A stretch of DNA of 26,763 nucleotides, from IMG/VR virus record IMGVR_UViG_2606217104_000012; one strand, written 5' to 3'. Below the pieces are notes generated by a model, which saw only the letters and a list, made by a program, of their open reading frames with translations, was not told the origin of the DNA and did not search any database. The translations under genes were made by a program, and so were the position numbers. This stretch comes from a virus. Lineage: Duplodnaviria; Heunggongvirae; Uroviricota; Caudoviricetes. How positions within the stretch are numbered: the stretch's first letter is position 1; each line of letters begins with the position of its first letter. This document shows positions 3,508 through 26,763 of this stretch, in pieces.

Positions 3508-3531
3508 AAAACCGCGCTATTGCGCGGTTTT
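3508..3531. terminator. Bidirectional intrinsic terminator between convergent acyltransferase and tail-fibre operon
   Basis: aaaccgcgc-tatt-gcgcggttt hairpin with T-tracts on both strands; overlaps the stop codon of the minus-strand 59-aa ORF. Confidence 0.7.
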
Positions 3532-3696
3532 ATCTTCAGGCTTGATGAATTTTTTACCGTCATATGACCAGCCAATACCAACATCTCCAACACATTTAAC
3601 TATATCCGCTTTTTCTGGCTTAAACTCTGACTTACCATCCCATACAACAAGATTTGTAACGACACCATTTTGTACGACTGCATAAATATCGCTCAT
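3517..3696 (-). CDS. Small protein (59 aa) translationally coupled to the tail-fibre gene; function unknown
   Basis: ATG overlaps the tail-fibre stop (TAATG), GGGAG RBS upstream; reads [59 protein letters not shown]. Internal start chosen within track ORF 3517..3711. Confidence 0.5.
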   Translation of the reverse strand: MSDIYAVVQNGVVTNLVVWDGKSEFKPEKADIVKCVGDVGIGWSYDGKKFIKPEDKTAQ

Positions 3697-4796
3697 TACT
3701 GATACTCCCACACAAGAATATATCCCTGATTTCCATTATTTCCTGTCGCTGGGCCTGATGACGCCTTATTGTATTTACCTGTCCCGCCAATACCGTATGT
3801 CCCAAGCATAGTAGTGGTTATACTTTCAACGCCAATCGCCTGATCATCACCAAGTCCAAGTGCCCCACATAAATTTGATCGTGAAACTGAATGGAACAGA
3901 ATCCCTTGCCCTGTAGGAATTGGTGCTTCTGTTGCACTTCCCCCTGAAAATGGAGGTACCTGCTGAACTTGAGTTGATCCCCTTCCTCCCGGGCATACAA
4001 GCAAATCACCAAAGCTTGTATTCCCGCCGTCACCTCCAGAGCCTCCTGGTCCTGTTCCTGCTACACCACCGCTTCCAATAGTTACTTGCACGGATTCAGG
4101 TATAGACTGATAAAAAAATGCTTTAGCATATGCCCCGTTGGAACCGGCAGCACTTACACCACAGTTATTTGAGGCTGTTGCTGATAAATTGCCACTGGCA
4201 CCACCACCGCCAACGGCTTCCACTATAATTTTCGTTACACCAGGTGATTTGTGATAAGTCCCAGATGATCCAAATACCTGAACCCCCAAAAGCCTTCCTG
4301 TTCCATCACCAAGTGTTAAATATTGTAGAGTTTCCGATACGTTTTTTTTACTTAAAATTTCCCTACCATTTTGAGTCAGCGCTGTCATATCCATTGTTCC
4401 AGCACCTGTAAAAAATGCCAGCCCATCCGGTATTCCTGTTAAGCTCGACAATGATGTCAGATTATCATTTTTATCCTGTTTATCATTCAGAATGTCTGTC
4501 ATTCCCAGGTTTTCGAGAGCCGTTTGCACAGTGCCATCCGATTTGATATCGCCAAACGGATTCTTGCGGCTTAACAGCAGCGCACGAAGCGCGGTAAGAA
4601 GCTGATCGTGCCGCCCCTTCTCCAGGCTGGCACCGGATGCCTCCACCACGCTGCAGAGTTCTTCCTGCAACATGTCAAAGTAGTCATCATCCAGATCGGT
4701 GGCAGGCGTGCCGGTCTGGGGGTTACCACGGGTAAAACCGTTCTTACCCGCGCCGAACTTATCCTTCTGCGCGGTTTTCGTGTCTATACGATGCAT
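3696..4796 (-). CDS. Tail fibre protein (Mu S / lambda Stf-type conserved N-proximal region, glycine-rich C-terminal domain)
   Basis: 366 aa; segment [26 protein letters not shown] resembles the conserved side-tail-fibre motif (lambda Stf ...LTQVGRDILAKNSVADVLEYLG...); C-terminus rich in G/S/T (GGGGASGNL...[18 protein letters not shown]); last gene of the tail operon. Confidence 0.8.
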
Positions 4797-4799
4797 GGA

Positions 4800-5384
4800 T
4801 TACTCCGGATATTTAAAAATTACGTAGGTATGCGAAGGGCAGAGTTTGTTAAGCACACACTCGACAACGGTGTCGCCCCAGATACGCAGTGCGGAATCAC
4901 AGGGATCGCCACATGTCATCCAGGTGGTGTTGGTGGCGGCTGGCATGTTGACCTGCCAGTAATACCGCCATTCCGGCGCATTCACCGCGTCAGTACAGGC
5001 AGATGAGCAGGTGAACGTGCTTTTATCGTATCGCGTGATGGTGGCGTCTGGTCTGCCCAGGGCAGCAAGCTGTGCAAGGTAAAAATCCTCATTAATGCCG
5101 CCCGCCAGATTAATCTTCGCATCCAGCCGTTGCTGACGCTGGCGAAGGGTCTGTGTCCCTGTAGGAATACATTCATCCGGCAGGCCGCACAGACGCTCCC
5201 AGCGGTTTATCAGTTCAGTGGTGGTGCGCGGATCCAGCTCCCGCATCAGGGCATCCGCACGCTGATGAACGCGGGTTAATGACGGTGCCGCACCGGCAAT
5301 CGCCGGATCGCTGGCTGACCACGCCGGACCGGGGGGCAACAGTGCCGACAACAGACGGATGTAATCATCGTTTGTCACGTCCAT
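4800..5384 (-). CDS. Mu gp48-like tail/baseplate protein
   Basis: 194 aa; position between baseplate J-like gene and tail fibre matches Mu gp48; the call rests on synteny. Confidence 0.6.
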
Positions 5385-6433
5385 GAAATCGTCCCCAGTA
5401 CCGCCAGTTCATTTTTTGCAATGGAGATATTGTCTGCCGGTGCAAACAACTGATGGCTGTATTCCCCGTTCGCACCGGAAATCGCCTCACTGATACGCGA
5501 TACCTTCAGTTCTCCCTGCGGATAACCATCACGCAGCAGGAACGAACGCAACTCCGCGGTGATGGCAGCCCGTATTTCCGGTGTGTCCGGCGTCACACGG
5601 ATATGAAAATCCACCGTATGTGCCACCGGCCTGAACACATACAAATCAGAGCCTGCCACCGGGGCCAGTGGCTCGATATGTTGTCTTGCCGCCGTTTCCG
5701 TTGATTCTTCCGGAATGGGATTAATCAGGTCACTGCTGGCAATCATCACACCGACAGTTCCCGTTCCCATCCAGTGACGGTATGTCCATGCGCGGGTAAT
5801 GCCGGGCACTTCTTTAGCCCAGACGACATAGTCCCCGTCAGCCCCGCCCTGCGGCGTCCAGTAATACCGCTCAATGACGCGGGCGCGCCACGTTTCCAGA
5901 TCTTCAGTATCGAATCCGCCAGTCAGGGTATCTGCAACACCGGAAGACGGCAGACCATTCACCGGCGTGACCAGGATTAATGCCGTACCGTCGTCAGCGT
6001 TACCGACCGCGCCTGCACTTGAGCAAGTGATCGGCACGCGCAGGACACCACCGGAGCTGGTTGCATCAGCAGTTGCCGTGTACTGAACCAGGTCATCGCG
6101 CTGAATCACGCTCCCGGCGGTCACCTTCAGGCCATCGCTGACACCTTCCCAGCGCATATACCCGCTGGCAGCCGTGGCCCCCTTGCGCGGACACCGTTTC
6201 ATCGCAGCATGTCGCGCCAGCCAGGACTCATCGCACAGGTCAGGCAGCATATTCATTGCCAGATAATCGATGTACCCGTAGACCGTATGCAGCGCCGCCG
6301 CATACACCTTTGCCCGCACGTCTTCATCCATGCGCCGGAGCGTGTTGCTGACGTCCAGCCTGGCGAATAAATCGTTACGGAGCATACTGATATTTTCTGC
6401 CAGCGTCGGGCGCTGAAATTCACTGTCCGCCAT
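5375..6433 (-). CDS. Baseplate J-like protein (Mu gp47 / P2 gpJ family)
   Basis: 352 aa; size and order (after gp46-like, before gp48-like) match the Mu baseplate module. Confidence 0.7.
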
Positions 6434-25578: not shown

Positions 25579-25599
25579 CTAGAAGACAGTTAAGAATAG

Positions 25600-25962
25600 T
25601 TAACAGGCAAGAGTGCAAACAATGCCTTCAATGAAACCAAGCGATGTTTGCAACTCTTTCCTGATAGTCCCATCCGAACACTTTCTCTTCTTAGCAATGG
25701 CTCGCAATGAAATCCCTACCACAAAATGGGCTATAACTAATTCATACTCTTCTGGTTTGTACTTTCTTAATCTAGCTACGCACCCATCGATCATGAGCCC
25801 CTCATCATCATCACACTGAATCCGGGACTTTTTGCCATGAGGTAAAAGCCCCTTGAAGCCAGCGGCTACCGGTTGCCAGTCCACTCCGCTATTGTCTGAA
25901 GCAGCCCAAGCTCCCCAACGATCCATCACTTCATACATATCACGCATCAACTTTCTCCACAA
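25600..25962 (-). CDS. Late-gene antitermination protein Q (QuuD/Q82 type)
   Basis: 120 aa; matches my recollection of DLP12 QuuD (ERWGAWAA...AAGFKGL...CDDD...C.ARL). Confidence 0.8.
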   Translation of the reverse strand: MWRKLMRDMYEVMDRWGAWAASDNSGVDWQPVAAGFKGLLPHGKKSRIQCDDDEGLMIDGCVARLRKYKPEEYELVIAHFVVGISLRAIAKKRKCSDGTIRKELQTSLGFIEGIVCTLAC

Positions 25963-25964
25963 AA

Positions 25965-26759
25965 TCAGGCCAGCACGCCAATTGCCAGCGCACGATCGAT
26001 AAAACGAAATATCAGCTCCAGCTGGGAGCCATACTTCTCTTCAAATGCCACGGTATCCGCATGCAGCTCGTCGTGATGCTTTCTGCACAAAGGCAACACA
26101 AAGAGGTCATGCGCTTTTGTACCCATCCCACCCTGACCGTGGCCTATCAAGTGGTGGGGATCATCAGCAGGCTTTCCACAACATGCACACGGCTGTGTCT
26201 TAACCCAGCGCGTGTACTTTTCATTAACCCAGCGGCGACGTTTTGGGCGTAACATAAAAGACTCCGGCGACTCCGGATCCACTTTCAGCGCCAGCACCTT
26301 TTTCGCCTTATCCTGGATGATGCTGGTGGCAGGAACCGAAGGCACAAGGTCACTTTCCCGGGTAACAGACGGCACAACAGGCTTCGGTAATCTCAGTGCC
26401 TTACGGGCTGCACTTTCCGGTAAGGCATCCGCCAGATCATTACGAATCAGCCACCAGCACAGTTCCGGCATTGTCACAACGTGACTGTCATCAAAACCGA
26501 GATCCCGACGCACAACAGACAACACCCAGCGGGCACAGTTATCCGTTGCCATTGATTCCAGCCGTTCCGTGAACTGATCGCGCAGCTGGTTATCGCAGTG
26601 CCAGCACAGACGGATTGCGCCCGGAGCGTGTCGCATTGTGGTCATGTTCTCGCTGTGCCAGTCGGAATGAGGCCACTGGCAGCCTTTTTCACGAAGTAAC
26701 CAGCTTTCAAGACATTCCACGCCACCAGCACGACGGATCACTGCCTCATTGCGGAACAC
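25965..26759 (-). CDS. DUF968-type lambdoid prophage protein (YdfU-like); 5' end may extend beyond the window
   Basis: 264 aa as tracked; C-terminal motif CACCGKPADDPHHLIGHGQGGMGTKAHDLFVLPLCRKHHDELH; sits immediately upstream of Q, as ydfU does relative to quuQ in Qin; GTG start 4 nt from the window edge with no upstream stop. Confidence 0.6.
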   Translation of the reverse strand: MFRNEAVIRRAGGVECLESWLLREKGCQWPHSDWHSENMTTMRHAPGAIRLCWHCDNQLRDQFTERLESMATDNCARWVLSVVRRDLGFDDSHVVTMPELCWWLIRNDLADALPESAARKALRLPKPVVPSVTRESDLVPSVPATSIIQDKAKKVLALKVDPESPESFMLRPKRRRWVNEKYTRWVKTQPCACCGKPADDPHHLIGHGQGGMGTKAHDLFVLPLCRKHHDELHADTVAFEEKYGSQLELIFRFIDRALAIGVLA

Positions 26760-26763
26760 GGCC

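Follow-up and report, generated by a model that had tools for sequence, protein, structure and literature searches.

What kind of phage brings together the regulation and lysis genes of a lambdoid phage, an HK97-type head and a contractile tail of the Mu type, and where does such an element end in the chromosome that carries it? The question is raised by a stretch of 26,763 nucleotides of virus DNA (Duplodnaviria; Heunggongvirae; Uroviricota; Caudoviricetes; IMG/VR record IMGVR_UViG_2606217104_000012), referred to here at its full length as the window, for which an earlier note had proposed a mosaic prophage of this description. All of the genes listed for that mosaic are present, in the stated order and on the minus strand, and it is highly probable that the window contains the late half, together with the right-hand junction (attR), of a temperate "lambdoid myovirus" prophage of the SfV family with cos packaging, inserted in the tRNA-Thr gene thrW of an Escherichia or Shigella chromosome, a reading that includes the steps of late transcription and cargo expression set out below. 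The architecture was published between 2002 and 2013 in the genome papers on SfV, SfI and SfIV, and the element described here is one more, ordinary, mosaic member of the family.

Ends and extent of the prophage

The 46-nucleotide att core that is common to SfI, SfII, SfV and SfX (PMC3636060) has a single exact occurrence in the window, as compared to 0 matches in 100 shuffled sequences, and a tRNA scan found no complete tRNA gene in the window, the thrW copy consisting of this 3' fragment only. Together, the core and the phage-side arm next to it (433-621) are 97.4% identical to SfIV 23073-23261 and 94.7% identical to SfV 20467-20655. We assign positions 451-496 to attR because one side of this segment runs into K-12-like DNA downstream of thrW and the other into the SfV/SfIV attP arm. 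The thrW-type integration proposed in the earlier note is upheld by the exact core and the SfV-type arm, and the family, of which SfIV is a myovirus by electron microscopy, is known to integrate at thrW (PMC3851460). The same junction moves the start of the element, which had been put at 3517, to a right end of the prophage at about 451, from where the element extends past the right-hand end of the window.

Inside this boundary, the late region runs uninterrupted on the minus strand from Q through holin, endolysin, Rz/Rz1, HNH, terminase, head, neck and tail to the fibre, with 0 frameshifts relative to SfIV; in the open reading frame (ORF) map the minus-strand gene chain is nearly gap-free from 3696 to 23836. 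Islands of low GC content lie at approximately 2000-3500 (30-34% GC) and 24000-25500 (35% GC). The end of a thrW prophage in strain KSC1031 is 99.1% identical to window positions 350-9785, and 99.9% identical over 350-5000; this prophage is ~39 kb long, with a LysR pseudogene and paoD beside its attR end and thrW-int next to proA at the opposite end. Outside the window's prophage, ~100 bp beyond attR, sits the end of an IS3-family insertion sequence (IS) that replaces the LysR-pseudogene/paoD flank of KSC1031 and has matches at thousands of sites in E. coli genomes.

Comparison with known phages

The whole-prophage comparison suggested in the earlier note was run by megablast with positions 3517-26763 as the query against 50,697 phage records, and at the gene level by tblastn with 38 ORFs of the window as queries and SfV, SfIV, Mu, lambda and HK97 as targets, supplemented with Pfam, NCBIfam and PHROGs. 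The best overall DNA match was the E. coli phage vB_EcoM-720R4 (ON470603; 85% coverage, 97.6% identity), followed by Shigella phage SfIV (73%, 97.6%), SfII and SfI (64%, 97.2%) and SfV (48%, 96.5%), with Salmonella ST64B-like phages and phiP27 matching less well. Membership in the SfV class, as claimed, is retained, and SfV as the nearest relative is given up in favor of SfIV, SfII and SfI.

SfIV (NC_022749) is colinear with the window over the blocks listed in Table 1 and encodes proteins 97-100% identical in amino acid sequence to TerS, TerL, the portal, protease, capsid, sheath, tube, chaperone, tape measure, N, P and gp45-48, with 61-100% identity among the neck genes (tail completion 61%, head closure 90%). 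It also has the same cos position, att arm and core, types of holin, endolysin, Rz and Rz1, and DUF968 gene. SfIV has no counterpart to positions 622-4506, with the cargo and the C-terminus of the fibre, to a short piece within one neck gene, or to 24042-25899 (Kiwa and Q). Relative to SfIV, the window element has swapped the C-terminus of the fibre and the DNA from fibre to attR for a 59-amino-acid ORF, an AT3 acyltransferase, an S24 remnant and a GNAT-fold gene pair, lacks gtrABC and the IS, and differs in its Q allele and in the slot after Q, which holds uncharacterised genes and an IS in SfIV and Kiwa in the window. SfV (NC_003444) shares the architecture, att core, terminase, tail from neck to gp48, fibre N-terminus, lysis genes and DUF968 gene, mostly at 92-100% amino acid identity (82-83% for Rz/Rz1), but has another HK97-type allele of the portal and capsid, a divergent tape measure and chaperone (the latter 44% identical to that of the window), a Q of 250 amino acids, a co-oriented methylase moron between Q and S, and gtrA/B/V. 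From vB_EcoM-720R4 and the SfV-like E. coli prophages (e14 and KpLE1 relatives), the window element differs at the fibre/cargo end and in the Q-moron region.

Table 1. Features of the window and of compared genomes (window positions unless another genome is named; aa, amino acids or amino acid identity)
Feature	Position	Strand	Basis or counterpart
IS3-family insertion sequence end (orfA start)	1..352	-	99.7% identity to annotated IS3-family transposase element of relative locus L001
attR core, 46-nt 3' end of tRNA-Thr thrW	451..496	-	exact match to published SfI/SfII/SfV/SfX att core (PMC3636060); aligns with K-12 thrW and SfV attP
Phage-side att arm	497..621	-	homologous to SfV/SfIV attP region
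190-aa cargo protein, GNAT acetyltransferase fold	869..1441	+
57-aa partner ORF of GNAT-fold gene, then hairpin	1532..1705	+	co-occurs with 190-aa gene in Klebsiella chromosomes
S24-peptidase (LexA/cI-like) gene remnant	2085..2296	-	frameshifted partial pseudogene in KSC1031 and CP52E, homologous position
AT3-family integral-membrane acyltransferase, 339 aa, 30% GC	2486..3505	+	PF01757 E 2e-30
59-aa ORF directly after fibre gene	3517..3696	-	phrog_14370, function unassigned in PHROGs
Tail fibre, 366 aa	3696..4796	-	PF21722 glycine-rich domain; phrog_863 full length
gp48	4800..5384	-	Phage_Mu_Gp48; 30% aa to Mu
gp47/J	5375..6433	-	Baseplate_J; 31% aa to Mu
gp46	6420..6848	-	GP46; 45% aa to Mu
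gp45	6845..7393	-	Phage_Mu_Gp45; 29% aa to Mu
P/gp44 hub	7393..8472	-	GpP domains; 35% aa to Mu
N/gp43	8469..9845	-	DNA_circ_N; 42% aa to Mu, N-terminal domain only
Tape measure, SfIV allele	9870..11777	-	PF10145; 99% aa to SfIV, 24% to SfV
Tail assembly chaperone	11862..12185	-	PF10109, as Mu gp41
Tube	12182..12538	-	PF10618, as Mu gpM
Sheath	12538..14034	-	36% aa to Mu gpL
Mu gp38-like DUF2635	14018..14188	-	42% aa to Mu gp38
Neck genes: tail terminator, tail completion, head closure, HK97 gp6-like connector, 66-aa ORF	14197..16168	-
HK97-type major capsid	16217..17422	-	TIGR01554 equivalog above cutoff
HK97-type prohead protease	17437..18087	-	TIGR01543 equivalog above cutoff
HK97-type portal	18065..19306	-	TIGR01537 equivalog above cutoff
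Small membrane protein YmfR	19306..19488	-
TerL	19500..21233	-	97-100% aa to SfIV; 26% aa to HK97
P27-family small terminase TerS	21230..21724	-	TIGR01558 above cutoff
cos TGCCCGCCCC	21775..21784	-	identical to SfI 10-nt cohesive end
HNH endonuclease, beside cos and terminase	21851..22201	-	PF01844; 90-92% aa to SfV orf53 and SfIV gp54
Rz1/LysC lipoprotein	22494..22769	-	LysC-type, lipobox LTGC
Rz	22654..23046	-	DUF2570; 28% aa to Mu gp23
Endolysin	23030..23506	-	88% aa to lambda R
Class-I holin	23510..23836	-	PF05106 (lambda S family); three hydrophobic segments
Hairpin and T-run upstream of holin, late strand	23988..24009	-	putative terminator of late transcription, with read-through by Q-modified polymerase
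kwaA (membrane protein)	24167..24688	+	PADLOC KwaA 1.9e-83
kwaB (DUF4868)	24694..25578	+	PADLOC KwaB 2.3e-150; PF16162
Late antiterminator Q, 115 aa	25600..25947	-	PF06530 E 1.5e-45
DUF968/HNHc-like gene, SfV orf45 homologue	25965..26763 (5' part cut by window end)	-	PF06147 1.7e-81; 99% aa to SfV/SfIV
Slot content, window	25579-25599 and 24010-24166 flank cassette		Kiwa
Slot content, SfII NC_021857	SfII 35581-37195		PADLOC candidate PDC-M53A/B; cassette starts 3 bp after Q stop
Slot content, SfIV NC_022749 and Stx2a_1447 AP012536	SfIV 35932-37354; Stx2a_1447 13770-15333		uncharacterised pairs (179+343 aa; 108+356 aa), listed for Stx2a_1447 and SfIV
Colinear block, attP region	433-621		SfIV 23073-23261
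Colinear block	4507-14757		SfIV 7050-17300
Colinear block	15060-21791		SfIV 1-6732
Colinear block, SfIV genome end	21792-24041		SfIV 37510-39758
Colinear block	25900-26763		SfIV 33770-34633

Head, packaging and tail

The reading of an HK97-type head with a P27-type terminase and an HNH partner is confirmed by the family models named in Table 1. By tblastn, the head and packaging proteins are 98-100% identical to those of SfIV; identities to HK97 are 32% (portal), 36% (protease) and 26% (capsid), and those to SfV are 28% (portal) and 25% (capsid), with no SfV match for the protease. The head allele is accordingly classed, from these alignments, with the SfI/SfII/SfIV/e14 type and not with that of SfV, and the window agrees with the published presence of one HK97-type head allele in SfI, SfII and SfIV and a different one in SfV (PMC3851460, PMC3636060). 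The placement of the HNH gene next to cos is a further likeness to HK97. The 10-nucleotide sequence TGCCCGCCCC, determined experimentally as the cohesive end of SfI (PMC3636060), is located in the window between HNH and TerS, and the ends of the linear SfIV and SfV genomes map to 21791/21792.

Similarity of the tail to that of Mu had been named as the point on which protein searches could overturn the interpretation, and these searches left it standing, with 29-45% amino acid identity to Mu (NC_000929) along with shared Pfam families. Of what had been called a full Mu-like set, the sheath, tube, chaperone, N, P and gp45-48 are confirmed, gp38 is added to them, and the tape measure has to be taken out. 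This last protein has no Mu match by tblastn and belongs to PF10145 as compared to PF20155 for Mu, the tail terminator is not detectably Mu-like (PF23840 versus PF08873), and in SfIV itself these two proteins are likewise not Mu-like. The tube gave no tblastn match to Mu, yet it and Mu gpM are both strong members of PF10618. Among sequences in the PDB, the sheath is matched best by the tail sheath chain 9khy (E 6e-80), whose sequence is also present in entry 9ki1, which contains Mu gp44, and the hub protein matches the 43-kDa tail protein of the MuSo2 prophage (3cdd, E 4e-52) and Mu gp44 (1wru, E 2e-50). Likeness to Mu covers the tail module from gp38 to gp48 and, at 28%, the Rz-like protein; the head, portal, terminase, neck, tape-measure family, transposition replication and regulation differ, and the window element uses cos packaging and att integration. 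A classical lambda siphovirus was considered and rejected, the tail being contractile and of the Mu type.

The fibre is of the SfV/SfIV type over its first 99 amino acids (96-98% identity by tblastn, over the first 27% only) and has a different C-terminal domain. A distant-mode DNA search of ~50,000 phage records found no match for this domain and the adjacent 59-amino-acid ORF (3517-4500); the latter possibly encodes a fibre accessory protein. In RefSeq annotations of relatives the fibre is divided between two entries, a "stfP pseudogene" and a "glycine-rich protein", a division that we reject as an annotation artefact without a frameshift. The gene is considered intact because the two RefSeq halves share one in-frame codon and because the full 366-amino-acid protein is called whole by GenBank submitters, an identical protein occurring on 365 contigs.

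Late control and lysis

The late-control and lysis genes were described in the earlier note as lambda-type, and this holds for the S-family holin and the R endolysin. Q and Rz/Rz1 are present and belong to other families (PF06530 and DUF2570/LysC, as compared to PF03589 for lambda Q and PF03245 for lambda Rz), and they are functional analogues of the lambda genes. The ORF at the window end, which had been taken for Q, is a member of DUF968 (PF06147), and Q is the ORF at 25600-25947. This Q is 55% identical to gp46 of SfIV at the amino acid level and 83% identical to the Q genes of some Stx2a phages at the nucleotide level. With lambda the element shares, in addition to its holin and endolysin, the logic of Q-type antitermination and a moron slot between Q and S; the siphovirus tail of lambda sets it apart from the contractile-tailed element. 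Lambda Rz1 is fully embedded in Rz. The spanin genes of the window overlap, Rz1 beginning within Rz and continuing for 160 nucleotides past the Rz stop codon. A leader of 206-244 bp directly before the holin is common to SfIV and SfII, and ~210 bp of it occurs at ~72% identity in many lambdoid and Stx phages; the strong hairpin and T-run on the late strand (Table 1) belong to this leader.

From these parts the following life cycle can be proposed. After induction, RNA polymerase would be modified by Q at a late promoter that has the Kiwa cassette on one side and the hairpin (24009-23988) on the other, and the lysis, terminase, head and tail genes would then be transcribed as one late operon. 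Terminase and HNH would cut at cos, and HK97-like proheads would be filled and joined to Mu-like contractile tails, with receptor specificity presumably set by the divergent C-terminal domain of the fibre. In the lysogen, three low-GC morons may be expressed from promoters of their own: the AT3 acyltransferase would most likely O-acetylate the O-antigen and so block re-adsorption, the GNAT-fold gene pair would be a second moron, of unassigned role, and Kiwa would shield the host from other phages. The scheme is supported by SfII, a viable phage with the same architecture of Q, reversed cassette, leader and holin.

Several observations weigh against parts of this interpretation. A promoter scan of 21700-26100 gave nothing above the shuffled background, so that PR' and a Q-binding site were not located there (a candidate promoter, TTAACG-N16-TATATC, was read by eye only), and the gap between the stop codons of Q and kwaB is only 21 bp. 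Our inference puts PR' in the interval from the Kiwa cassette to the hairpin; alternatively, late transcripts would run antisense through the cassette. A fibre assembly gene of the Caudo_TAP type is not present downstream of the fibre, unlike the situation in SfV and SfIV. The acyltransferase has no similarity to Shigella-phage Oac in the phage collection, where its best match is one of 35% to TL-2011b. Finally, the window stops in the DUF968 gene, so that the early half (int, xis, cI/cro and replication genes) falls beyond its end, a point that bears on completeness and inducibility.

Cargo next to attR

In SfV and SfIV the DNA between fibre and att site includes a gene for fibre assembly and gtrABC, and the window has neither; tblastn found no match between its cargo ORFs and the gtr genes of SfV or SfIV. 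An O-antigen cargo gene had been predicted here, and what stands is an AT3 acyltransferase in the slot where SfV has gtrABC, with a putative role in O-antigen modification. The protein has ~9-10 hydrophobic segments, and its best PHROG families are an O-acetyltransferase (phrog_3333, 7.5e-51) and an O-antigen acetylase (phrog_6705, 3e-26); it is most likely an O-antigen O-acetylase, a putative assignment as to target. The chief competing view, that the enzyme acylates another envelope polymer (peptidoglycan, enterobacterial common antigen or capsule) or is a mere passenger in an element that is not serotype-converting, is the less probable of the two and deserves to be taken seriously: AT3 (PF01757) is a broad family, one database names the protein "peptidoglycan/LPS O-acetylase OafA/YrhL", no NCBIfam model matched it, and Sf6 Oac was not among its similarities in the phage collection at E<1e-3. 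Besides the PHROG matches, this view has to contend with the fact that the attP-proximal slot holds O-antigen genes in every family member (PMC3636060), and with the company that the acyltransferase keeps, since it travels with a specific fibre C-terminus at two att sites, as expected if receptor and modification are linked.

This second site is known from the SfV-like prophage of CP52E, which also ends, beside bioA/ybhB, in the block of fibre C-terminus, 59-amino-acid ORF, acyltransferase and S24 remnant. Because the block is found in prophages at two att sites, it moves with the tail end independently of the site of integration. Such co-travel fits a linked function of receptor and modification and is no proof of it. 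The S24 remnant is conserved with the cargo block at both sites, and this suggests that the block was captured from the immunity region of another phage.

Intact prophage or remnant

Whether the element is a cryptic, non-inducible remnant comparable to e14 or KpLE1 of K-12, with its early, immunity and integration half deleted or disrupted, depends on DNA beyond the DUF968 gene, where nothing is seen. Remnants are common in this family, to judge from the K-12 gene names (ymfQ, ymfR, stfP, yfdN and others) with which relatives are annotated; frameshifts occur in the tail genes of some relatives (the tape measure of KSC1031), and IS elements interrupt others (the Rha gene in L001; SfIV). In the window an IS3-family element lies 100 bp outside attR. 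We nonetheless consider a remnant unlikely. All late genes are full length when compared with those of the viable phage SfIV, cos and attR are exact, and close relatives are full-length prophages of ~39 kb with int next to thrW. Relatives that share the Q-Kiwa-holin module have complete early regions, including cI, cro, replication genes and int.

The Mu homology of the tail and baseplate genes might point to a transposable prophage like Mu or to a tailocin cluster with no head, and both readings can be dismissed with near certainty: the head, terminase and neck genes are of HK97/P27 type with no Mu match by tblastn, cos and the tRNA att core are present, relatives have a tyrosine integrase and not a transposase, and the element is not a tailocin because its head and packaging genes are free of frameshifts.

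Kiwa and the slot between Q and holin

In the window, kwaA and kwaB make up, on the PADLOC matches, a complete operon (35% GC) of the Kiwa system, predicted to act against phages. It converges with Q and is placed between Q and the holin. Neither this operon nor the GNAT-fold pair nor the IS3-family end figured in the earlier reading. Kiwa has been documented on prophages before (PMC11785009), and a PDB search with KwaB gave no match in sequence at E<1e-3. For the identical KwaB protein, the assembly collection lists 2319 blocks; of the eight places shown, seven have it between the 115-amino-acid Q and the holin in SfV-like prophages whose early region is complete, and in the eighth (L018) Q is present, with tail-fibre-related genes in place of the holin side.

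The slot begins 3-21 bp past the stop codon of a short Q of the PF06530 type and is occupied by reverse-oriented two-gene cassettes that differ between phages. SfII has the window's layout, from Q through a reversed two-gene cassette and leader to the holin, with PDC-M53 where the window has Kiwa. The slot looks like a defence hotspot, an observation that leaves the position of the late promoter unexplained. It is conceivable, and rather doubtful as a joint proposition, that the cassette of fibre C-terminus, 59-amino-acid ORF and AT3 gene is a new module for receptor binding and O-antigen acetylation (a new serotype conversion in E. coli), and that the post-Q slot is a hotspot for two-gene defence systems, among them the pairs of SfIV and Stx2a_1447.

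Implications, prevalence and mosaicism

For the classification of phages the element adds little that is new. Its value is for annotation, in that the prophage boundary (attR 451-496) and cos are fixed and the identities of Q and the spanins corrected, and for the biology of the lysogen, whose surface antigenicity and susceptibility to phages could be changed by three beneficial cargoes (the AT3 acyltransferase, the GNAT-fold pair and Kiwa). The slot between Q and holin may also be a useful place for the mining of defence genes.

The word "unusual", applied to this class in the earlier note, does not fit a 17-kb backbone (4800-21790) that occurs in 15% of complete E. coli genomes (809 of 5426 at a coverage of at least 80%, mostly with 95-99% identity; some match is present in 1705). 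The acyltransferase/fibre cargo end is rare, being found in ~10 complete genomes, and its proteins are nonetheless already deposited publicly, on hundreds of contigs. Window positions 1-24000 are covered to no more than 82% by any complete E. coli genome. As aligned here, the window is a mosaic: for its left part the thrW prophage of KSC1031 is the closest, and for its Q-lysis part other prophages are closer. KSC1031 has two SfV-like prophages (NZ_CP019560.1 2029508-2034678 examined). Its thrW prophage has the window's cargo end with another Q/lysis module (a 250-amino-acid Q and a GH19 endolysin), and the Kiwa-Q-lysis module is found in its second SfV-like prophage; the window resembles the product of recombination between these two prophage types.

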